Both the position numbers and the translations under genes were made by a program. A DNA stretch of 64,000 nucleotides, taken from a virus. Of the stretch, positions 2,763 to 39,022 are shown piece after piece (the stretch's first letter is position 1; each line of letters opens with the position of its first letter). The notes under the pieces were generated by a model. It was not told the origin of the DNA, searched no databases, and was given only the letters and a program-made list of their open reading frames with translations. The stretch is taken from positions 96,001-160,000 of the IMG/VR virus record IMGVR_UViG_3300007511_000003. One strand, given 5' to 3'.

Positions 2763-3410
2763 TTACTCCATTGATTCGACCATCTTTTCCTTTATGTGCC
2801 CTCGCTGTGACTCAATGTATCGAGCAATCGTACCGGCACTCTCACGCGCCAAATTGTTCAATTGAGGATGCCTGTGCTCTGGCACATAGGTTTCCAATGA
2901 TCTCTTGAGATTGTGTAAGCTATCAATCACCACCTGCGCGATACCGATAAAGGCGGGATCGATTATTTCCGATGACAGTTGCAGAGCCAGTTGCCTACCA
3001 TCCCTCTCTGCCTGCATGTCTGCAATTAGCTCCCTTGCTTGGGAAACCAGACTGTTTAAGGCATAGGCAGCCCTCTCTGAACCCTCCTGCCTGTACTTGT
3101 CTTCTGCTATGGGTATCAGGTCCATCAGGGACTTCAACATAGTACGCTGAAACCGATTGACCGCGCTCTCTGTCTGCTGGTCTTCCAGTAGGGATGCGAT
3201 TTCTGTTACGTCATCCTTAAACAAAGAACGCAGGTTCTTCAAACGACGTGCTTGTTGACGCTGTTTCTTGGTCAAGCCGCTAGACGGGGGCCTCCCCTCT
3301 TTATGAGAGGAAGAGACCTTGCCCGCCCGCGATTTTTTTAACCGCTGCGACTTAACATGTGATACAGCCACATCCCGACGTTGGGCATATTGCTTACCCC
3401 TGACTGTCAT
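2763..3410 (-). CDS. Hypothetical protein, possibly terminase small subunit
   Basis: Basic N-terminus plus helical body (SERAAYALNSLVSQARELIADM); lies next to a small HNH; the function is weak inference. Confidence 0.45.
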   Translation of the reverse strand: MTVRGKQYAQRRDVAVSHVKSQRLKKSRAGKVSSSHKEGRPPSSGLTKKQRQQARRLKNLRSLFKDDVTEIASLLEDQQTESAVNRFQRTMLKSLMDLIPIAEDKYRQEGSERAAYALNSLVSQARELIADMQAERDGRQLALQLSSEIIDPAFIGIAQVVIDSLHNLKRSLETYVPEHRHPQLNNLARESAGTIARYIESQRGHIKEKMVESME

Positions 3411-3572
3411 TAGGCTCCCTCCAGTTAATATTCAGGATGTGTTGGACCCTTACCAATCAGAGAGATAGTTTATGCCCGTGTCCTGACGGCCACAACTACA
3501 CTGGTACCCGGAAACAGGTAACCCACACGAAATCCCATTGTTACAAACCCAGTCTCAAATCTCATAAATAAT

Positions 3573-3941
3573 TTACATTGGTCCCACATAGATGGTCTTT
3601 GAGTGCGGAGACAGCACGATACCGTTGTATTCCCCGGACTTCCCAAAGGTTGGCGGAACAATATAATATTCTGGACCATTCCCCATATTAACATCCGGGA
3701 AGTCCGTGTCCTCGTCAGGAGTGGGTTTCCACTTGGCGGCCCTCATCGCCTTTTTGAGAGCACCCTCACCAGCAAAACGTAGGAGCTTGTAGGTATCCAT
3801 AGTACCGGTAACCTTGGGCCCGATCTTGAAACCATTGGCCACCAGTTGTTCCACCATCACCTCGTAAGGTTCGCCCCAAGGTTCATCCTCGGCTGTTTCT
3901 TTAAGACGAGCCAGTGCCTGTTGGTGGGTGTTCATGGTCAC
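3573..3941 (-). CDS. Small protein with N-terminal HQQALARL tag
   Basis: MTMNTHQQALARLKETA; overlaps the upstream stop. Confidence 0.7.
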   Translation of the reverse strand: MTMNTHQQALARLKETAEDEPWGEPYEVMVEQLVANGFKIGPKVTGTMDTYKLLRFAGEGALKKAMRAAKWKPTPDEDTDFPDVNMGNGPEYYIVPPTFGKSGEYNGIVLSPHSKTIYVGPM

Positions 3942-4234
3942 TCCATCTTGAAAAGTTTTTGAAAGTTGGCTACTTCCAGTATTCTACGGACGCCAGGACG
4001 TGCGTGACGTAATACTACACGCTTGGGTCCTAGCTTTTCGTTGGCTATTAACAGAATACCAAGGGCAGCACTATCAATGTACCTGGCATGTCTTAGGTCA
4101 ACCACAAGATTCTGGTCGGGTTTAACCTGGTCCATAGCCTTCCGAAACATACCATGACATTCAAATTGGAAGGTACTGGGTGGTACAAACACCACTTCCT
4201 TACTATCCGAGTGTATTTTGCACTCCTGTTCCAC
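3938..4234 (-). CDS. STAS-domain anti-sigma factor antagonist (SpoIIAA/RsbV-like)
   Basis: LVVDLRHARYIDSAALGILL and VRRILEVANFQKLF match the STAS signature, including the phospho-acceptor Ser. Confidence 0.9.
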   Translation of the reverse strand: MEQECKIHSDSKEVVFVPPSTFQFECHGMFRKAMDQVKPDQNLVVDLRHARYIDSAALGILLIANEKLGPKRVVLRHARPGVRRILEVANFQKLFKME

Positions 4235-4938
4235 TATGATACTCCACTTGCGAAGTCTATTGCCATCTGCTTCGCGTCATCCATCGTTTCCGCCTGCCAC
4301 TCCCCACGCCCTCTGTTAAACTGCTCAACATGGTCTGTATAGATGACCTGACTTTCATCACCTTTTGGCCAAATTTCATAGGATACATGGATGTTTACAC
4401 TGTCACCGTCCTCGTGGAGAGTGATCTCTTTGTTCTGGTACATGTCATCTGAGTACCATGCCTCAACGTCCTCGAGGAATTCCTGTGGGTCGGAAGGGTG
4501 AAAAGCACAATCACCTTTCTTGACTTTGGAGCCGACTCCAAACCCATACATGGCGCGGTGACTCCACCCATACCACTTTTGTTTGGCCTCACAGTATCCA
4601 ACAGAGCAGACATTGTGGTCGGGTGCTGACAGTTCGGGTACGATTCCTCGTTTTGCCAAAGAGGCAGCGAACTCGGGATCCCCTATATAATCCCCATCTA
4701 GGTTGTATGCACTCTTCATCTCCAGCGGCTTATTGGAACCCGACTCTCCAGGCGGAATCTCTTCGGTCCTCACTTGGTAAGTAGGGAACGTCTGTATGCT
4801 TAGGACCTTTCGCAAACTCGACAAGGAGAGCCGGGCTAGGGCCTGAAACCTCAGGCCCTTGCTAGGCACCATGGCACAAACTTGGCCGCGGTGTATTACT
4901 GGAATACGTGGAAGCAGGACAACCCGTAGGGATTTCAT
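4234..4938 (-). CDS. Phage hypothetical protein (WYGWSHRA motif)
   Basis: 234-aa ORF with CSVGY...KWYGWSHRAMYGF...AKQMAIDFA. Confidence 0.7.
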   Translation of the reverse strand: MKSLRVVLLPRIPVIHRGQVCAMVPSKGLRFQALARLSLSSLRKVLSIQTFPTYQVRTEEIPPGESGSNKPLEMKSAYNLDGDYIGDPEFAASLAKRGIVPELSAPDHNVCSVGYCEAKQKWYGWSHRAMYGFGVGSKVKKGDCAFHPSDPQEFLEDVEAWYSDDMYQNKEITLHEDGDSVNIHVSYEIWPKGDESQVIYTDHVEQFNRGRGEWQAETMDDAKQMAIDFASGVS

Positions 4939-5190: not shown

Positions 5191-5364
5191 TTATTTCCTC
5201 TTGGCACGCCGCACAGCAATCTTTTTCTTGTTCTTCTTGCGGTACTGTTGCTGCTGCTTCTGGATCTTGGCCTTGTTCTTTTGGTAGTACTTCTGGCGGG
5301 CCTTCTTCTTGGCCGGATTTTTCTCAGGCTTCCGCTTGGGCTTCAGGGCAGTGACGGTGGGCAT
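5191..5364 (-). CDS. 57-aa very basic protein (possible DNA-condensing core protein)
   Basis: Manual translation MPTVTALKPKRKPEKNPAKKKARQKYYQKNKAKIQKQQQQYRKKNKKKIAVRRAKRK; AAGGAG RBS. Confidence 0.65.
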   Translation of the reverse strand: MPTVTALKPKRKPEKNPAKKKARQKYYQKNKAKIQKQQQQYRKKNKKKIAVRRAKRK

Positions 5365-5369
5365 CTGCT

Positions 5370-5477
5370 TTACTCCTTAACTTGAGTGGTTTTACGTTCG
5401 TGATTACGTACCGCCATATCATTGGCAGCACTCCAGGCCTGACGCAGCCGGGCCAATGCTTCTTTGTGTGGGTCCAT
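5370..5477 (-). CDS. 35-aa peptide with HKEALARL tag
   Basis: MDPHKEALARLRQAWSA...; GGAGG RBS directly upstream. Confidence 0.5.
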   Translation of the reverse strand: MDPHKEALARLRQAWSAANDMAVRNHERKTTQVKE

Positions 5478-5761
5478 TGAGACCTCCCTTTTTGAAAAGT
5501 TGACGCCAAGATACGTTACAGCTCAAGACGCCGCTGATAAAACCAATGGTTAAAGCCGGCATTCCAATAATGATGAGTGCCGAAACAAGGTCGAGGGGCG
5601 GAATAAAATCAAACATGGCGGGCCTCCAATTGATGGGTCCACCATTCACATTCCCAGCAACAGCCTCATTTTTACCCATGCAAAAAACATCGCACCACCT
5701 ACTATATACAGTAATCCCATAAAGAACAGCTCTTCCTTCCAGTGAGGGCCCCTTGGATCTT

Positions 5762-6730
5762 TCATTTTTCTAGGTTGAACGTCTCAACCAGCTCTTCCCT
5801 AGTCATGATCTTGATGCCAAGGTTAACCGCTTTCCGCTCCTTGGAACTGCCAGTACCTTTAAGTTTCATCACCAGGACTGTCACTTTCCTGGAGATGCCG
5901 CTGGCGATAGTACCGCCCTCACGTTCGATTTGTTCTTGTAAGTCTTTATCCCTGAAGCCGGTAAACACCACAATCTCACCCGACATCTTGTCACCCTCTG
6001 GAGGAGCCACAGGACCTAGTGTTTCAATGGTAATCAGGCGTTTGATGGGTTTTACGAAGGCCTGGAATTTGGGAAATCCTTGGGCAAACTGCTTGGCACG
6101 CTTACTGCTGAACCCAGATACAGACAGGGCCATATGCTCCAAGTCCCGAGGGTTAGGTCTGTTAAGATCCATGATCTGCGGGTATTTCTCAACCAGTGGT
6201 GTTAACTGCCGTACACCAAAGCCAGGACCGAATACCCCAGAAGCCGCCATCAATACGGGCAGAGACACTGGATTCAAAGCTTTCTTAATCCCGGTGACGA
6301 TGGTGGTGGCCGTTTTATCCTGGATGCCAGGAACCGCCATCAAGTCTTTTTTCGTGGCTCGGATAACGGCTTCGATGGAGTCGATTCCATGAGTAGCCAA
6401 CCGTTGGATTGTACCTTGAGCAAAGTTTTCGACTTCAATGGCCTTAAAAAACCAAGCAATTTGTTTTACCAACTGTTCGTCGGTGTCCCCCGTGGCGCGT
6501 ATATCGACACCAGAGGAAGTCCATTCAAAGTTACCGTCTTCCGGTAATCCTGCCTTGCGGCTAGGAGCAACAACCTCCAAAATATGCGGGATAACATCTC
6601 CACTCCTTGTAATCTTGAGGACCGCACCAGGCCCTACCTTGTTGTCGTTGATGAACTTGGCATTGAAACCAGTTACCCGACGGATAGTTACCCCTCCCAA
6701 TCTAACACCAGGACGTACACTTTTAGCCAT
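5762..6730 (-). CDS. ligA: NAD-dependent DNA ligase, C-terminal fragment (rest of OB fold, HhH, BRCT)
   Basis: LGGVTIRRVTGFNAKFI, ITRSGDVIPHI, HhH VPGIQDKTA, BRCT VVFTGFRD...SSKERKA; has its own AAGGGGA RBS. Confidence 0.9.
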   Translation of the reverse strand: MAKSVRPGVRLGGVTIRRVTGFNAKFINDNKVGPGAVLKITRSGDVIPHILEVVAPSRKAGLPEDGNFEWTSSGVDIRATGDTDEQLVKQIAWFFKAIEVENFAQGTIQRLATHGIDSIEAVIRATKKDLMAVPGIQDKTATTIVTGIKKALNPVSLPVLMAASGVFGPGFGVRQLTPLVEKYPQIMDLNRPNPRDLEHMALSVSGFSSKRAKQFAQGFPKFQAFVKPIKRLITIETLGPVAPPEGDKMSGEIVVFTGFRDKDLQEQIEREGGTIASGISRKVTVLVMKLKGTGSSKERKAVNLGIKIMTREELVETFNLEK

Positions 6731-7760
6731 GGTGTATCCCCTTTAAAATCTGAGTGCGTGTCTTCCGATACCAACCTCGTGGCAAAACTATGCGTTTGGG
6801 GGAGCCGTTATCATTTTGCATAACCAAAAGTCGAAAGATAAAACCATCCTTCATTGTCTGTCGGGCTTTAGCACACAAAATGTGCCATAAACGGTCAGGG
6901 GAGCTTTTATGTAATCTATGGTTTGTTAATCCTGCCGTGTGTAAAGACTTTACTTCTATAAGTATGTTACGGTCCGGGAGGAACAAATCGGGGTAGTACC
7001 TACGGTTCTTTCCGTCAAGTTGGTAATATACAACCGGCACTTCGCGGTCACTAAATACTCGGATCCTTGAAGGATCCACCCCTTTTTTGTGGAGTAACCA
7101 ATCCAATGCTAGGTCTTCATATCCTTGTACCTGAACGACCCGGGAACCTAACGTATAAGAATGATAAAATCTTGTGCTGGAACAAGCATTACATGCCAAG
7201 CCTCGTTTAGCCAACACGGAAGAAGGGCGGGCCGTAAATAAGGCACCGCAAGAAAGGCATTTATGTTCTATTGGAACACTAATACCCTTATACACTCCTA
7301 TAGGCTGTAGGGCTTTACCTAATTTCTCCAACCTCTCACCGTATCTCTCTGTGGTATGTAGGCCATGTTTTGACGGGTTGCATGATCGACAACCAACACC
7401 ACGTTTAACAGCCTCTGTGGTATACCAATCCTGGGTATTACAAAACTTACATTGATACAGGTTTTTGGCATTCTTCAACCGACGATAACCTTCCATAACA
7501 TAAAAGGAAGAGTTACGGATTTCTGTCATATGGTTGCACATCGAATGGAAATTCTGCAACCTATCAGAGCAGGCAGGGCAGTTAAGGAACCCGTTTTTCG
7601 TGGTCCTGGGTTTAGTTATAAACCCATTACCGCAGATCTTACAATAATGGCTACAAGGTACGTGAACACCGGAATACCCGGAAAGGTACCCTACCAAAGT
7701 AGAATCCAAGGATTTAATATACTCTTGTTCTCTTACCTCGAGAGATTTAGACATACCCAT
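6723..7760 (-). mobile_element. Free-standing homing-type endonuclease (tandem CxxC Zn ribbons + PD-(D/E)XK nuclease) inserted in ligA
   Basis: Multiple CxxC pairs and RRYYPDLFLPDRNILIEVKS; visibly more AT-rich than its flanks; overlaps both ligase fragments. Confidence 0.8.
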
Positions 7761-8743
7761 TACATCGGTTCCACTATGACAGTAGGTTTCAAAATACCAT
7801 GCTTAGACACGTTCCATTCTACACTCACCACCCTACATTTCACTATCTGATCCTCCATCAACATCTTGAAGGCTACGCTGTACCGAGGGTTGCCAGATGT
7901 GGCGCGTTTGTATATTGAGTCCTGTGTGACCACCAGACCGTCTATGGCAAACTTAGAGCTCTTCCGCCTCGCAATGAGTCTGTCAGAGAGTGTCTGGGCG
8001 TCCAGGACCTTATAGGCCTTGGCAGGAGCGACCGTGAATCCAAGCTGGTGTTTCAGGTAGTTGAGCTGTTCGGAGGGTTTCTTGCGTGGAACGATGAGTT
8101 CGTAGCACACCAAGGTGGCGTCTTTGAGGGCAGGGCTGACATCCGGGCGGTTGACCAACCCACCCATGAAATTCCGTGGGTTTGCGAAGTCCTTGGCGTA
8201 CTTCTTGAACGCCGTCTCGGACATGATGATCTCGGCCCGTACCGCGAAGGTGTCCTGTGTCTTGGGAAGCCCAAGAATTGGCACCATGGACGTTACATCC
8301 TGTCCGACCTTACCGTTACCTCGGGTAAACAGTTGGTACCGGCCCTTGGTACAGATGATAAGCATTGAGATGCCGTCCATCTTGTCCGACACCACGTAGG
8401 GCCCTGGGTTGGCGTCAAACCAACGGTCAAGGTCTGGAGTGTTGGGTTTGATCTTGTCGAGGGAACCCATCCAATAGGGCAGTTTTTGTTTCTTACCCTG
8501 ATCGACAGGAGCGCCTACTTTTTGGAGCAAAGGGCTGTCAGGGAACCTCTGGCGGAACGTATCCTCAATCGCGTCAAACTCGGCGTCTGACAAGAAAGGG
8601 CTTCCCTTGTAGTACGTGTTCTTGGCCCGGCGGTATAACTGACGTAGCAGCCGAGCGGACAACTTTGAGGCATAACCTCCAGGGTCTGCCTTTAGGGCTG
8701 TCAAATCGAACTCATACGCTGCCACTTCCCTCAACCTTTTCAT
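7760..8743 (-). CDS. ligA: NAD-dependent DNA ligase, N-terminal fragment (domain Ia + adenylation domain)
   Basis: YY...LSDAEFD, MGSLDK, SDKMDGIS (KxDG), TRGNG, ANPRN, IDGLVV, VAFK; ends GILKPTVIVEPM*. Confidence 0.92.
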   Translation of the reverse strand: MKRLREVAAYEFDLTALKADPGGYASKLSARLLRQLYRRAKNTYYKGSPFLSDAEFDAIEDTFRQRFPDSPLLQKVGAPVDQGKKQKLPYWMGSLDKIKPNTPDLDRWFDANPGPYVVSDKMDGISMLIICTKGRYQLFTRGNGKVGQDVTSMVPILGLPKTQDTFAVRAEIIMSETAFKKYAKDFANPRNFMGGLVNRPDVSPALKDATLVCYELIVPRKKPSEQLNYLKHQLGFTVAPAKAYKVLDAQTLSDRLIARRKSSKFAIDGLVVTQDSIYKRATSGNPRYSVAFKMLMEDQIVKCRVVSVEWNVSKHGILKPTVIVEPM

Positions 8744-9057
8744 CCGTCCAGTACCTGCTCTGTGGATGACTCATCATAATCTTCGTCCGCGTCACCAGCC
8801 TGACTTACCTCCATCTCCATGTCTTCCAACAAGGAACTTGCTTGGCTGAGCAGAGCATGGAGTTTCTTACTGTCACCAAGGAAACCAGGATCCAGACGCT
8901 TGAGTTCCTTGGACAGAGGAGACCCTGGAGTTTTGGTCATCGTCAAGGCATCTTCGACCATCGTGTATAATTTGTCGATGATTTTCAGGGCAGGGTCTGC
9001 GGTACCTGCCTGTTGGCATTGTCTGAGGCGTGCCACCGCTTGTCGTGTCGTGGTCAT
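8740..9057 (-). CDS. Small protein with RQAVARL tag
   Basis: Likely start MTTTRQAVARLRQCQQA at 9057. Confidence 0.6.
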   Translation of the reverse strand: MTTTRQAVARLRQCQQAGTADPALKIIDKLYTMVEDALTMTKTPGSPLSKELKRLDPGFLGDSKKLHALLSQASSLLEDMEMEVSQAGDADEDYDESSTEQVLDG

Positions 9058-9073
9058 TTCGTCTTCCTTTGGG

Positions 9074-9508
9074 TTACAGGGATTTGTAAACCAAGTCATC
9101 CAATTCACGGATAACCTGGTGGGTAGAAGAGCGTAAACACCGCAGGGTATCTTGTGGTGTACCCTGCTTATAAAGCAAGTTGGCTAGGCCCCGGGCTTTG
9201 CTTCTCTTTTCTAACCAACGTTGGCACAATTCTTGGGCAGTAGTAAGGGCCTTTAAAGCATGAAGAATATATAACCGCCCTGCGAGTTCCTGGACATCGT
9301 AGTAATCCAGGCTAGATACCCCATCAAACAAGGTAAGAACCTGAAGAACATCTTGTGGGTATTGTTGGTCAGACTGGGCTACAAAATCATCAAGATCAAA
9401 GTCTGAGCCAGACCCAGACCGAGTGGGCTCCAAGGCGTCAAAACTTGCGTTAACCGAGGAGCGGCCCATTCTTTTCAGGCGAGTTAAGGCTTGTTTGTGG
9501 GTGCTCAT
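9074..9508 (-). CDS. Small protein with HKQALTRL tag
   Basis: MSTHKQALTRLKR; ATGA overlap. Confidence 0.65.
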   Translation of the reverse strand: MSTHKQALTRLKRMGRSSVNASFDALEPTRSGSGSDFDLDDFVAQSDQQYPQDVLQVLTLFDGVSSLDYYDVQELAGRLYILHALKALTTAQELCQRWLEKRSKARGLANLLYKQGTPQDTLRCLRSSTHQVIRELDDLVYKSL

Positions 9509-27160: not shown

Positions 27161-27586
27161 CTATTGACAGATTGGCACCACGTTTGTCATGTTGTTTCCA
27201 CTACCTTCTGGGAGCGCAGAGGTTCCAGCAGGGATGATGCCGGTCATTGCCTGGATGTACTTGTCCTGGATATCCTTCTTGGGGAAGTAGGGCATGGTTT
27301 CCACCTGACTGAAGTGGAACCGCATGTCAGAGGTCGGCAACTTCATCTGGTTGGTGGGTTCCTGCATGTAGTATGAGATGGGTACGAATCCAATCTGGGC
27401 GACCTTGACGGGCTTTCCCGTGGCGGGATCCGTTTGATTCTGGATCGCCAGTTGCAACAGGACGGCATTGTCCAAGTAGATCATTTGCTGCTCTTGGTCA
27501 ATACGACACTGGCCCAGATACTCGCGGTTTGGTGACCGCATGACAACCATGATGGTACTTCTGTCCATTGTTCTGCTCCTTAACAA
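27161..27586 (-). CDS. Hypothetical protein
   Basis: ORF with AAGGAG RBS before MDRST. Confidence 0.65.
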   Translation of the reverse strand: MLRSRTMDRSTIMVVMRSPNREYLGQCRIDQEQQMIYLDNAVLLQLAIQNQTDPATGKPVKVAQIGFVPISYYMQEPTNQMKLPTSDMRFHFSQVETMPYFPKKDIQDKYIQAMTGIIPAGTSALPEGSGNNMTNVVPICQ

Positions 27587-28281
27587 ACATCAAAGTGGTT
27601 GAGGCGTTCCAGTAGGGGATCGGATAACCCAGCATCCGCAAAACCCTTGGCACGCAATAAGCAACTACGGCACTTGGTACATGGGGATTTACCCCCTTCA
27701 TAGCAAGTGGTGGTGAAGGCCAATAATTCCATACCACGCGGCAACGACTGAGCAAACTCTACCACCCCTTGCTTACCCCACTGCATTAGAGGAGTAAGTA
27801 CCTGGAAGTGGTAGTCCATTCCTTTCGTCAGAGCCTCGGCCATGGCATCCGCAAAGTCACGGCGAGCGTCTGGGTACCCGCCCAACCCCTGTTCAGATAT
27901 GCCAAACACCAGGTTAGGGCAATCCAAAGCATAGGCCCTGTTCGCGAGCAAAATGGAAAACAGGATGTTACGCCCTGGAACGAACGTAAGGTCCTTGCCA
28001 CCATCTGGGATCTCCGACGCGTCTTCGTATCGTTTGACTTCGTTCGCGCTGTTTACCAGTGGACTGGTGGACCGCAAGAGCTCATTCGGGACACTGATAA
28101 TATCCTGACGTATGCCAAGTTGGCGGCATATGGTCTGGGAAGCAAGCCGTTCCGCTTCCCATGTTTTGTGTCCATAGTTGAAGGTGATAGCGCGAACCTC
28201 GTCAAACTCTTGCTGGGCCCAAATCAGGGCAAGAGTCGAGTCGAGGCCTCCGGATAAACTGACAAGGGCTTTCGTTGTCAT
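27580..28281 (-). CDS. queC: 7-cyano-7-deazaguanine (preQ0) synthase
   Basis: SGGLDS PP-loop, TFVPGRN, GYPDAR, TTCYEG...CTKCRSCLLR. Confidence 0.95.
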   Translation of the reverse strand: MTTKALVSLSGGLDSTLALIWAQQEFDEVRAITFNYGHKTWEAERLASQTICRQLGIRQDIISVPNELLRSTSPLVNSANEVKRYEDASEIPDGGKDLTFVPGRNILFSILLANRAYALDCPNLVFGISEQGLGGYPDARRDFADAMAEALTKGMDYHFQVLTPLMQWGKQGVVEFAQSLPRGMELLAFTTTCYEGGKSPCTKCRSCLLRAKGFADAGLSDPLLERLNHFDVC

Positions 28282-28979: not shown

Positions 28980-29570
28980 TTACTTGGAGGCTTTGAAAGC
29001 GAGGCCGTGAGAGGCCAAAGCATCCTTGACAGCCCTAACCGACCGGCGACCCAAGCCTGAGATATCGCTCATCTCGGCATGGGTTTTGGCCTTGAGCTGG
29101 GAAACGGTCTTGATTCCAGACTTGGCCAGTGTCTCAACCACACGATCAGTCACACCCAGGTCTGCCACGTTCCGCGGGGCCTTGTCACCGGAAGCCTTGG
29201 TTTGGGTTCCCCGACGGGACTTGCGGGCGGGCTTCTCTTCGGTAGCACCTTCGGTGGCCTTGGCTTTCCGGCTCCGACGGCTGGACTTTTTGGTCGCCTC
29301 TTCCTTGGGTTGGCTGTCATCAGCGGTCTCCGCCTTGGCTTTCCGACGGGACTTGCGGGCGGGCTTCTCTTCGGTAGCACCTTCGGTGGCCTTGGCAGTG
29401 GGCTTGCGGACGCGAGTCTTTTTGCCTTCGGTCTGACGCTTTTTGAGCTCCTGCTCCCACTGCTCCGCGAAATCGAAAGCCTTGGCAGCAACGTTCTCAG
29501 TTTCACCAGACTCGATCAAAGCGGCCATGGCGAGGATGGAAACCTGGGTTTTGTTAGACTGACTGTTCAT
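28980..29570 (-). CDS. Protein with C-terminal RNA polymerase alpha-CTD-like domain
   Basis: ADLGVTDRVVETLAKSGIKTVSQLKAKTHAEMSDISGLGRRSVRAVKDALASHGLAF. Confidence 0.8.
   Translation of the reverse strand: MNSQSNKTQVSILAMAALIESGETENVAAKAFDFAEQWEQELKKRQTEGKKTRVRKPTAKATEGATEEKPARKSRRKAKAETADDSQPKEEATKKSSRRSRKAKATEGATEEKPARKSRRGTQTKASGDKAPRNVADLGVTDRVVETLAKSGIKTVSQLKAKTHAEMSDISGLGRRSVRAVKDALASHGLAFKASK
29211..29396. repeat. 54-bp perfect direct repeat (29211-29264, 29343-29396)
   Basis: Encodes AKATEGATEEKPARKSRR twice. Confidence 0.9.
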
Positions 29571-36569: not shown

Positions 36570-37500
36570 TCGATAAAAATTTTTGGGTACCTAATGATAT
36601 GCGACCTACCGTCTATTTACAAGAAAATTTCCATTTTAGGGTTGGTCAAATCTTGATCTTATTTGGACAATTTTTCAATGAATTTGGTATGGCGTAAAAT
36701 GAGGTTGAAAACCAAAACGTATAGGGTATAAGAGAAACTTAGGGCACCACATAAAGGGAGGTGGGGCCTATGAAGGAAGGGCGGGTAGAAAGTTAAGATC
36801 CAAAATCGGTTCAAACTTGGAAAAGCGGGATTTCAGAATACCTCTTAATCCAGTATAAATACCGAAAGGATAAAGCGAATAGGTTGAAGGATTTTGGTCA
36901 AAAATCGTGATCCACAAGAAAATCTTTACCAAACCAAATCCTGCCTATCCAATTAATCCAAGGTAACGTCTGAGGTTAATGATAGGTAAAAAGCATATGG
37001 GTACCACCACTTGGGAGAACTATATAGAAGTAGCGAGTCGGGCCAGCGGGTATTGGTTTCTAACATTGGGACTGGATCTCACAAGGGACATGGATCTAAA
37101 GATATCCAAAAACCCTAGGGTATACCCTGTTACAGAAGGCGTCGCGGCGCGGAGCGCGTGCGCCTTCTGGTGGACTAAGGACCGTCCCCACTCATCCTAG
37201 ACATGTAAAATTGGATACCACCTCTTCCTCCATTTGGTAGGTTCAATGTCTAGGATGAGTGGGGACGGTCAAGGATAGAAAGAGATGTAGGCTGTCGCTA
37301 CGCTCCAGGCGCCTACATCTCCCTCCAGTAGGGCGTAGCCCTGGTGTTTAGGTAAGGAAAGAAATTTAAGACCTCCTCCAGAATCGGAGTAATCACCACT
37401 GGGTCTGACTAATTTAAAATTGAAGATGGTTGATTTGCGGTGTACCGCCCTACTCTAATTTCTTGTAAATAAATTGGGAATGAGGATGGTCACAATCAAC
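36570..37500. other. Long divergent intergenic region, candidate replication origin
   Basis: ~930 bp with no convincing ORF; AT-rich left half and a hairpin cluster at 37133-37344. Confidence 0.55.
37180..37270. repeat. 25-bp perfect inverted repeat with 41-nt spacer
   Basis: GACCGTCCCCACTCATCCTAGACAT (37180-37204) and its reverse complement (37246-37270). Confidence 0.95.
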
Positions 37501-37501
37501 C

Positions 37502-39022
37502 GTGAATGAGGATGGTATGAGATTGAAGGATCATGTATTTGAGCCGGCCCTGGCATCCTACCTAGAGGAGTTGGTTCCGATTCAATGGGATCAACGATTT
37601 TTTACCAATAGGGAGAGAAGCCAGATTAAGAGGTTCCTGTGTCACCTAGCCTACGAAGGCTTGTTTGGGTTAGGGAGATCTACGTTTAAGGTTTGGGTAC
37701 CTATTCCCTGGACCACCTTACATGTAGAAGCCAGAACCGTTACCCGTTCTTTTGGTACCGACAAAGGTTACGAGCTCCTGGAAAAGCTGGGTCTCATTGA
37801 AACCACCAATTATGATAGGCACCGTCGGTTGTGCCGCGAGTACCGACTCGCGTGGAAACACCTTAAGGCTCTTATCATTAGGATGGTTTCTTTATTTCAT
37901 CTGGACCACCATCCTTGGGGCCAGGACAGGCGGCAAGATCATATTTTATTGAAAGCGGTCCTCGGTAGGGTAGAAGGAAAGCGGTTACCTAGGAACAAGA
38001 TATCGGTACCACTTACCACCCACAGTCTACGCGTTATGAAAAACCGATACGTGGATTTTCCTGGACTGGTGACCCACATGTATCAGAGTTATAGAGATCG
38101 GGCAAAGAATGTTGGCGGCTCTTGGAACCGGTTTAAAGCCAACCTTCGGGTATGTTATTTTTTGTTGAGGCACCTCAAGCTGGATACAATAGGATGGTAT
38201 TACCGTCCGCGGTATAAGAGTGGTACGACCGGACGTATCCACGAAATAGGTGGTGGACTGCAAAACGCTCCTGTAGAAATGAAAGTTCGATCTCTCACCA
38301 CAGGGCAGGTCAATTACGACCTAGCGGCATCTCAACCAACAATATTGATTTCTGAATTTGAACAACACGGTATCGACACCCAATGGTTGGAGAACTATGT
38401 TGAGAATCCAAAGGCCAAGGAAAACGCCGCCCAGCGGTGTGGTATTTCTGTAGCTTGCTGGAAGACTATTTTTTGTGCCCTCCTGACAGGCGCCCGTCTT
38501 GTCAAACATCCTCAAAGCTCTATCATGCAAGAACTAGAGCACCATCTTGGAACATGGGATGCCGCCTGCGAGGCATTTGATCGGTTCCACTCTTACACAC
38601 AACCACTCCAAAAAGGTATCAAGGACTGGATCCAGGTTTTACTGGATACCCCTGCTGGTGTTCGCGGTGGTAAAAAATGGTGGCGTAACAAAATCGGTTT
38701 GAGGTTCGTACACCACCGAAATTGTGGCCAGCGTCTGATGGCGTTTATGGTACAGGGACAGGAGTCGGCTTTCATCCAAACATTGGTCATTGAACTGGCC
38801 AAGGTGGGAATTCCTGTTGTGGCCAATGAACACGATGGGTTTATTGCTGTCGGGGACCTGCCCTTGGGGGCCTGTCAACAAGCAGCAGAGAAGGTGGGTC
38901 AGGGAAGGTGGCGTTTTAAGATAGACGCTGTAGGGCCCTCAGAGGGCCAGGGGAGGTCTTTGGAACCATACCTGAGGGAAGTAGAAGCGGGGTACAAGAA
39001 ACAGCAAGGAAGGACCGTATAG
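37502..39022 (+). CDS. PolA-superfamily polymerase/primase-like protein (TV-Pol-like)
   Basis: TGRIH...GLQN, motif A NYDLAASQP, motif B-like KTIFCALLTG, QGQES, motif C EHDGFI; no exonuclease domains. Confidence 0.7.
   Translation: MNEDGMRLKDHVFEPALASYLEELVPIQWDQRFFTNRERSQIKRFLCHLAYEGLFGLGRSTFKVWVPIPWTTLHVEARTVTRSFGTDKGYELLEKLGLIETTNYDRHRRLCREYRLAWKHLKALIIRMVSLFHLDHHPWGQDRRQDHILLKAVLGRVEGKRLPRNKISVPLTTHSLRVMKNRYVDFPGLVTHMYQSYRDRAKNVGGSWNRFKANLRVCYFLLRHLKLDTIGWYYRPRYKSGTTGRIHEIGGGLQNAPVEMKVRSLTTGQVNYDLAASQPTILISEFEQHGIDTQWLENYVENPKAKENAAQRCGISVACWKTIFCALLTGARLVKHPQSSIMQELEHHLGTWDAACEAFDRFHSYTQPLQKGIKDWIQVLLDTPAGVRGGKKWWRNKIGLRFVHHRNCGQRLMAFMVQGQESAFIQTLVIELAKVGIPVVANEHDGFIAVGDLPLGACQQAAEKVGQGRWRFKIDAVGPSEGQGRSLEPYLREVEAGYKKQQGRTV

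Follow-up and report, generated by a model that had tools for sequence, protein, structure and literature searches.

The NAD+-dependent DNA ligase (LigA) gene of a jumbo myovirus is present as two open reading frames (ORFs) separated by a free-standing ORF for a putative homing-type endonuclease. The break lies inside the OB fold of the ligase, at a codon that, going by alignments and a phylogeny of related alleles, is a recurrent endonuclease target, and the two halves probably still make up a working enzyme. The locus was found in a 64,000-nt stretch of DNA (positions 96,001 to 160,000 of IMG/VR virus record IMGVR_UViG_3300007511_000003), here called the window; the record itself is 168.9 kb in length and estimated to be 65% complete. 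Window genes specifying a tail sheath, a head-tail connector, T4-type topoisomerase II subunits and a lysozyme-bearing giant protein mark the virus as a tailed phage of the myovirus type.

The locus consists of three minus-strand ORFs (Table 1), with no non-coding DNA between them and an overlap at both junctions. The upstream part of the ligase (N-half) ends ...KPTVIVEPM before its TAA. No good Shine-Dalgarno sequence was seen on direct reading of the sequence upstream of the endonuclease ATG, and the endonuclease would be expressed through translational coupling to the N-half. At the other junction, the start of the downstream part (C-half) overlaps the 3' end of the endonuclease ORF by 8 nt, the endonuclease stop codon (TAA, 6725..6723) falling within C-half codons 2-3, and the C-half has a strong ribosome site of its own. 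Its leader, MAKSVRPG, precedes the ligase sequence VRLGGVTI and is without counterpart in uninterrupted alleles. Both halves lie in one reading frame, and the endonuclease occupies a different one. An initial annotation had given this layout, with an N-half end of ...TVIVEPM-TAA overlapping the endonuclease ATG as TAATG, and a C-half restarting inside the endonuclease 3' end from its own AAGGGGA with the leader MAKSVRPG, and it was exact in each of these particulars and in its coordinates. The split arrangement is not an assembly artefact, because a 981-nt contig from an independent sample (L096, 2 mismatches) spans the junction of endonuclease and C-half together with the greater part of the endonuclease ORF. 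The 2 differences are too few for a dN/dS estimate. A promoter and terminator scan of nt 5300-9300 gave no excess over shuffled controls. A perfect 17-nt palindrome, GGATCCTTGAAGGATCC, occurs at nt 7061-7077 within the endonuclease ORF and has a terminator-like score on both strands.

Both halves are recognisable as ligase. In Pfam searches the N-half matched PF01653 (E = 7e-17, 62 bits against a cut-off of 27), and the C-half matched PF03120 (positions 26-76 of 79), PF14520 and PF00533. The halves are adjacent in three full-length LigA profiles, namely phrog_3869 (656 positions; N-half 7-335, C-half 336-654), TIGR00575 (652 positions; 1-332 and 333-652) and NF005932 (6-339 and 340-662), so nothing has been lost at the break and nothing duplicated beyond one codon. 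Neither half by itself reaches the equivalog cut-offs set for full-length proteins, which is normal for half a protein. N-half residue 327 and C-half residue 9 correspond to the same codon in about 70 of 80 IMG/VR loci and in 53 of 77 metagenome loci, and to codons within a few of each other in the remainder. When the window sequence was aligned with 27 relatives, every column invariant in the relatives was retained by both halves. In the N-half, the invariant columns of the 28 sequences are K121, D123, G124, R141, E171, D268, G269 and K293; the adenylation motif I lysine (KxDG) and motifs III-V are present, and the match to solved LigA adenylation domains is strong (E = 3e-24). D53 and D57 of domain Ia are likewise invariant, and the YY...D..(Y/F)D segment of this domain is covered from LigA residue ~6-11 onward. 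The invariant columns of the C-half are R42, S43, G44, V46, I47 and P48.

The OB fold, HhH and BRCT domains follow one another in LigA order, with the OB fold shared out between the two ORFs. Alignments to LigA chains in the PDB run up to residue ~346 (E. coli numbering) for the N-half profile and from 346 for the C-half profile. The OB fold, which we take to extend over residues ~317-404 of E. coli LigA, would thus be broken about 30 residues from its beginning. The strands with the SK.G..KP motif are on the N-half and those with RSGDVIP on the C-half, and the break probably falls in a turn between OB strands. The tetracysteine zinc finger that lies between the OB and HhH domains of LigA is absent, there being no cysteine in the C-half and no alignment to LigA residues ~393-442, a feature common to the whole phage clade and not to the split alleles alone.

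An uninterrupted, 'empty site' allele is present in the closest relative, L100 (JACKQG010000162.1, 66 kb), which was recovered in a metagenome scan. Over ~9 kb this contig and the window are colinear, with 55-78% identity between the flanking genes, and the L100 ligase is a single ORF of 639 aa with 65% identity to the N-half and 67% to the C-half. Residue 327 of the L100 ligase (Ile, ATA) is the counterpart of N-half M327 and also of C-half V9, and the empty site of L100 type reads ...GTG AAC CCA ATA AGA CTG GGT GGT.... In the nucleotide sequences, homology between the window and L100 extends up to ...GAA CCG AT/G TAA and resumes from G/TT AGA TTG GGA GGG (slashes mark its limits).

A splicing element was not detected at the locus. 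A permissive Rfam scan (E<=10) of nt 5500-9000 found no intron families, and Pfam searches of the locus ORFs found no Hint or intein domain. At the break the N-half has 1 extra residue and the C-half 8, too few to be the halves of a split intein, and the signature of such an element (an N-intein upstream and a C-intein ending HN followed by C, S or T) is not present at the ligase. These results, together with the overlapping ORFs, uphold the exclusion of intron and intein in the initial annotation. Its placing of the split inside the OB fold is borne out by the PDB alignments, which break at ~346, and its statement that intact ligases are continuous across this point by the uninterrupted relatives, which read straight through.

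The inserted ORF matched PF24308 (DUF7487; 52.8 bits against a cut-off of 27) and also phrog_559/681; its family is large, with 3,491 representatives at E<=1e-3. Residues ~36-195 hold three CxxC...CxxC zinc-ribbon repeats, the cysteines of which are conserved in an alignment of 46 sequences, and the C-terminal residues ~196-345 make up a PD-(D/E)xK nuclease domain with E215, D258, E269 and K271. In the same alignment D258, E269, K271 and K298 are invariant and E215 and P257 nearly so, giving the motif E...PD...ExK, and the window protein retains all of the family-invariant residues. Searching the PDB by sequence gave no match, and Foldseek by itself returned weak rows. The AlphaFold (AF2) model has a predicted local distance difference test (pLDDT) score of 90.1, and structure alignment (VIA-align) of its C-terminal domain gave Vsr (1cw0; Z 8.2, root-mean-square deviation 3.1 Å over 108 residues), TnsA (Z 7.7), I-Bth0305I (3r3p; Z 5.7) and I-Ssp6803I (Z 4.0), with many other PD-(D/E)xK nucleases at Z 4-6 over residues 196-345. 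The domain is thus predicted to have a restriction-endonuclease-like fold of the Vsr/TnsA-like kind. EDxHD (Vsr-like) homing endonucleases, of which I-Bth0305I is the prototype, are defined by a composite active site with a catalytic histidine and by NUMOD/HTH (helix-turn-helix) DNA-binding modules (PMC3239194). Membership of that group was ruled out, as the window endonuclease has no conserved histidine in its nuclease domain and no NUMOD/HTH modules; it carries a canonical E...PD...ExK motif with zinc ribbons in place of the EDxHD motif (PMC3239194).

The insert is foreign to the ligase gene, as seen from its low GC content (43.6%, 7-9 points below the 52.8% and 49.4% of the flanking ligase halves), from its paralogs in the same genome and from its membership of a large family in which the nearest members are free-standing ORFs of other phages. 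It is absent from L100. Its nearest homologs elsewhere are free-standing ORFs amid phage nucleotide-metabolism genes, often on the opposite strand, and none is within a ligase. Two paralogs occur in the same genome, one in an intergenic position (L002) and one at the DNA polymerase locus (L003). The former, which is the closest, is free-standing and antisense, between QueD-like and phosphoribosyltransferase-like genes. At the latter, the break in the polymerase reads as a split intein, the N part having the sequence ...EFC/IHPESWVV...LLQT-stop and the C part MVTRTVRV...VLVHN/CLDENMK. Such a locus is a 'fractured gene' in the sense of Dassa et al. 2009 (PMC2677866), whereas the ligase of the same genome is without an intein. 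Taken together, these features fit a homing-type endonuclease, the activity of which is putative.

The same codon is broken in other relatives (Table 1). The inserts of L005, L090 and L091 are homologous to one another (27-38% identity, E = 2e-32) and have a common H-L-D-H...N...N pattern together with HTH repeats, which suggests an HNH-like family; none showed detectable similarity to the window insert. A tree of 78 rows, to which L100 and further relatives had been added, has seven split and six intact alleles interleaved in one clade (support 99). The window groups with the intact L100 (support 100), L005 with the intact L103 (support 98), and L090, P0087 and P0089, all split, with each other (support 95). 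This tree requires no fewer than three gains or losses, and it becomes worse by 224 log-likelihood units (p-AU 5e-30) when the split alleles are constrained to group. A single ancient origin, as implied by the grouping of all six split alleles in a first C-half tree, was overturned in this way by denser sampling. Invasion or clearing of the codon has thus happened repeatedly, and at least two unrelated ORF families have taken part.

Several of these loci have features of their own. The P0087 contig (ENA ERZ1426829) carries a 437-aa N part, a 384-nt gap in which no ORF was called and a 319-aa C-half, and its break may have outlived its endonuclease. In L101 the C-half lies behind collagen-like and structural-looking genes, and the ligase halves of this phage may be unlinked. 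The HNH-like insert of L091 shifts frame between ...NPNKLL-stop and ...GQVSFHLDH and overlaps the C-half start by 85 nt, representing either a decaying endonuclease or a sequencing error. In L007 and L008 the ligase stops ~25 residues later; the C-terminal part of L007 is in small ORFs, and the L008 contig is of low coverage. L097 was rejected as another break because its junction is a scaffold gap (Xs). A PolX-like polymerase is encoded directly upstream of the ligase in L005, L007 and L008. Most of the best 80 uninterrupted ligase relatives in IMG/VR (L009-L088) are labelled as giant-virus metagenome-assembled genomes (GVMAG).

Table 1. Features of the split ligase locus, endonuclease paralogs, neighbouring genes and split alleles of relatives (positions are those of the window unless another sequence is named)
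Feature	Position	Strand	Particulars
Ligase N-half	8743..7760	minus	327 aa; domain Ia, adenylation (nucleotidyltransferase) domain and roughly the first 30 OB-fold residues; KxDG lysine is K121
TAATG junction	7762..7758	minus	N-half stop and endonuclease start share one base (last A of TAA is A of ATG)
Endonuclease ORF	7760..6723	minus	345 aa, free-standing; zinc ribbons and PD-(D/E)xK nuclease
C-half restart signals	6743..6707	minus	Shine-Dalgarno AAGGGGA 6743..6737, 6-nt spacer, ATG 6730..6728, leader codons to 6707
Ligase C-half	6730..5762	minus	322 aa; 8-residue leader, remaining OB strands including RSGDVIP, HhH domain, BRCT domain
Endonuclease paralog, L002	L002 1477-2775 (G000:C1:~37045-38343)	minus	432 aa; closest paralog, 35% identity, E = 2e-44
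DNA polymerase A locus, L003	G000:C1:86659-90054 (~6 kb before window start)		381-aa endonuclease paralog, on the opposite strand, separates the two polymerase parts
Tad6 (Type I Thoeris inhibitor) match	4234-4938	minus	234 aa; Pfam E = 1.7e-48; ~0.8 kb downstream of C-half
QueC homolog	27580-28281	minus	E = 9e-50; between two topoisomerase II subunit genes
ORF with RNA polymerase alpha C-terminal domain	28980-29570	minus	Between two topoisomerase II subunit genes
Split allele L005			N-half end ...KPVVIVEE-stop; insert 356-aa ORF; C-half start MSKG-VKLGG
Split allele L090			N-half end ...KPVVIIKEYHNAI-stop; insert 385-aa ORF; C-half start MSG-VKLGG
Split allele L091	L091 1-500 (insert region)	plus	N-half not on contig; partial insert, apparently frameshifted; C-half start MASIKGTVSNGLNPG-VLLDG
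Split allele P0087			N-half end not seen; no ORF called in 384-nt gap; C-half start MASTQATEKLG-IRLGG
Split allele P0089			N-half end not seen; insert not seen; C-half start MASTKTLENSG-VRLAG
Split allele L101	Ga0209083_1003211 3992-4936 (C-half)	plus	No N-half within 4 kb upstream; no insert; C-half start MTEG-VKLGG

The following account of the locus is, in our judgement, a likely one. A free-standing homing-type DUF7487 endonuclease gene would have inserted into the NAD+-dependent ligase gene at the codon matching Ile327 of the uninterrupted allele, near residue 346 of E. coli LigA and between the two parts of the OB fold. From the insert the upstream part would have gained a stop codon, and the downstream part a short leader with its ATG and Shine-Dalgarno sequence. 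Two polypeptides would result, one with domain Ia, the adenylation domain and the first OB strands, and the other with the remaining OB strands and the HhH and BRCT domains; these would most likely reassemble non-covalently into an active enzyme, its OB barrel completed in trans. The recurrent use of the codon belongs to this account, in which we infer the homing activity of the endonuclease, the translational coupling and the activity of a two-chain ligase. A wider proposition is in our view evenly balanced. It holds that the turn after the second OB strand is a natural 'split site' into which two or more unrelated families of free-standing endonucleases have inserted independently, each providing stop and restart signals and leaving a viable two-chain ligase, and that the site cycles between empty and occupied states without intron or intein.

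That the two-chain ligase is functional seems probable because its catalytic motifs are intact, it has dedicated translation signals and there is an all-split subclade in which the halves are open. In this subclade (L090, P0087 and P0089) the end branches are 0.5-0.7 substitutions per site in length; when unconstrained drift to 45% identity was simulated, the frame stayed open in 0 of 300 trials for the N-half and 2 of 300 for the C-half. In length, the branch of the window ligase (0.17) does not exceed the branch of the intact sister allele (0.35), and L101 keeps the C-half as a separate gene with its own start. A complex prediction for N-half residues 95-327 with C-half residues 1-95 gave a median score of 0.72, but one unrelated control gave 0.60, and we let this prediction weigh on neither side.

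A number of points weigh against this view. As the record is 65% complete, a ligase in the missing third is possible, and the LigA of the host might suffice. Association of the halves and the sealing of nicks by them are predictions. The sister allele is intact, so the insertion in the window is possibly recent and the lack of decay there says little, and the argument from selection rests on other lineages, which have a different insert. The assignment of that insert family as HNH-like follows from a motif pattern only: the catalytic region of the L005 insert matched no Pfam or NCBIfam profile, and its fold model, built from an alignment of 3 sequences, had a pLDDT of 47 and was not used. A database search with the L005 insert matched itself alone.

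Alternatively, the insertion might have killed the ligase, leaving the ORFs as young, undecayed halves of a pseudogene and the phage dependent on host LigA or on an unsequenced ligase. An uninterrupted closest relative, and hence a possibly recent event, and an incomplete record are what this explanation has in its favour. We consider it unlikely, however, since the C-half has a well-placed Shine-Dalgarno sequence, ATG and leader, no residues have been lost at the break, all of the invariant catalytic residues are retained, the arrangement is present in a second sample, the halves of the all-split subclade are open where neutral drift nearly always gives stops, and the 168.9 kb of the record yielded no further ligase. 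It is very improbable that one half alone is functional and the other dispensable, with, for example, a DNA-binding or clamp-like role for the HhH-BRCT protein that is the C-half, or a stand-alone adenylyltransferase role for the N-half. The L101 C-half, with no N-half within 4 kb upstream, and the HhH-BRCT part encoded as a separate gene in phage T5 would agree with this, but both halves are present, intact and adjacent in all three of the fully sequenced split loci (window, L005 and L090), and each half has an incomplete OB fold that is unlikely to be stable alone.

Restoration of a single chain, by an ORF-containing group I or group II intron, by protein trans-splicing or by ribosomal bypassing, is scarcely credible. 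The same genome has an apparent split intein in its DNA polymerase, and the ligase halves are in the same frame; against this, the locus gave no Rfam intron match even at E<=10, leaves no room for a non-coding element at its overlapping junctions, and has neither a Hint/intein domain nor, with 1 + 8 extra residues, anything near the length of one. We know of no precedent for ribosomal bypass of 1 kb.

The arrangement has a close parallel. As Friedrich et al. reportedly described in PNAS in 2007, nrdA of Aeromonas phage Aeh1 is split by mobE, a free-standing HNH endonuclease gene, and reassembly of the pieces into an active enzyme was shown. The case is cited in PMC3326045 and discussed in PMC2677866. 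The initial annotation had pointed to this parallel, and rightly so: the event is of the same kind, with halves that are colinear and complete, neither intron nor intein, and an empty-site relative. In both phages a free-standing endonuclease gene lies inside an essential DNA-metabolism gene, and its insertion makes a new stop and start and two polypeptides, the reassembly of which is shown for Aeh1 and proposed here. The present case differs in the gene affected (NAD+ ligase versus ribonucleotide reductase), in the endonuclease (zinc-ribbon PD-(D/E)xK versus HNH) and in that the break is inside a small beta-barrel domain.

Other precedents for fracturing without intron or intein, listed with Aeh1 nrdA/mobE in PMC2677866, are gp43 of Aeromonas phage 25 and an SbcD-like gene with a Vsr-like ORF, and in Felix O1-like phages nrdD is fractured by a free-standing endonuclease (PMC4837284). 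Both the SbcD-like case and the genes that Dassa et al. called fractured resemble the window locus in that a phage DNA-metabolism gene is in two parts with a free-standing endonuclease of Vsr-like, restriction-type fold between them. A phage ligase fractured by a split intein and an endonuclease has also been described (Dassa et al. 2009, PMC2677866), but that locus is Felix O1-like and uses an intein, and the window ligase has none. In phage T5, the NAD-dependent ligase is annotated as subunits LigA and LigB (T5.116/T5.117; PMC3632103), and thus also comes from two adjacent phage genes. The T5 break, however, follows a complete OB fold at the OB/HhH boundary (T5 LigA 282-321 aligns to C-half residues 15-54 of the window, and T5 LigB corresponds to residues ~77-319), while that of the window cuts through the OB fold. 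The T5 genes are 202 nt apart with no endonuclease; in the window the endonuclease is still in place.

Insertion sites of introns and inteins are recurrently targeted by different families of homing endonucleases. The ligase site is like these in being conserved to the codon, in having unrelated endonuclease occupants and in its interleaved empty alleles, which fits a cycle of invasion and loss. It is unlike them in having no splicing element, so that the host protein is divided in two each time the site is invaded.

The initial annotation had regarded a two-chain NAD+ ligase as undescribed. In that general form the claim does not stand, given the annotated two-gene ligase of T5 and the split-intein ligase of Dassa et al. 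2009, but the position in the OB fold does appear undescribed, as full-text literature searches, with subscription journals outside their coverage, returned neither this site nor any ligase with a break within its OB fold. What appears new is the intradomain break and the recurrent use of its codon by unrelated endonuclease-like genes; the mechanism is already known. The locus extends endonuclease fracturing without intein or intron to NAD+ DNA ligase and to the interior of a small beta-barrel domain. It also offers a natural experiment, with the empty L100 allele, two unrelated occupants of one codon, the stand-alone C-half of L101 and a split-intein polymerase in the same genome. Should the two chains prove active together, the break would mark a natural fragment-complementation point for LigA, and an essential gene would be repeatedly invadable without a splicing element, provided that the site tolerates a chain break. 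Recognising such breaks keeps annotation pipelines from labelling the halves as pseudogenes or as separate functions. Another kind of ligase fragmentation may be present in Sinorhizobium phage Phosso (L089), where a 138-aa ORF annotated as 'DNA ligase' (nt 2448-2864) lies directly upstream of a 675-aa ligase (nt 2894-4921).

Among the neighbouring genes of the window, the ORF matching Tad6 is a candidate anti-defence gene and is seemingly absent from the syntenic L100 locus. The region between the topoisomerase II genes (27-30 kb) has ordinary genes only and no further endonuclease. One of these is the QueC homolog, and its presence alongside the QueD-like gene of L002 is a hint of DNA modification with 7-deazaguanine.

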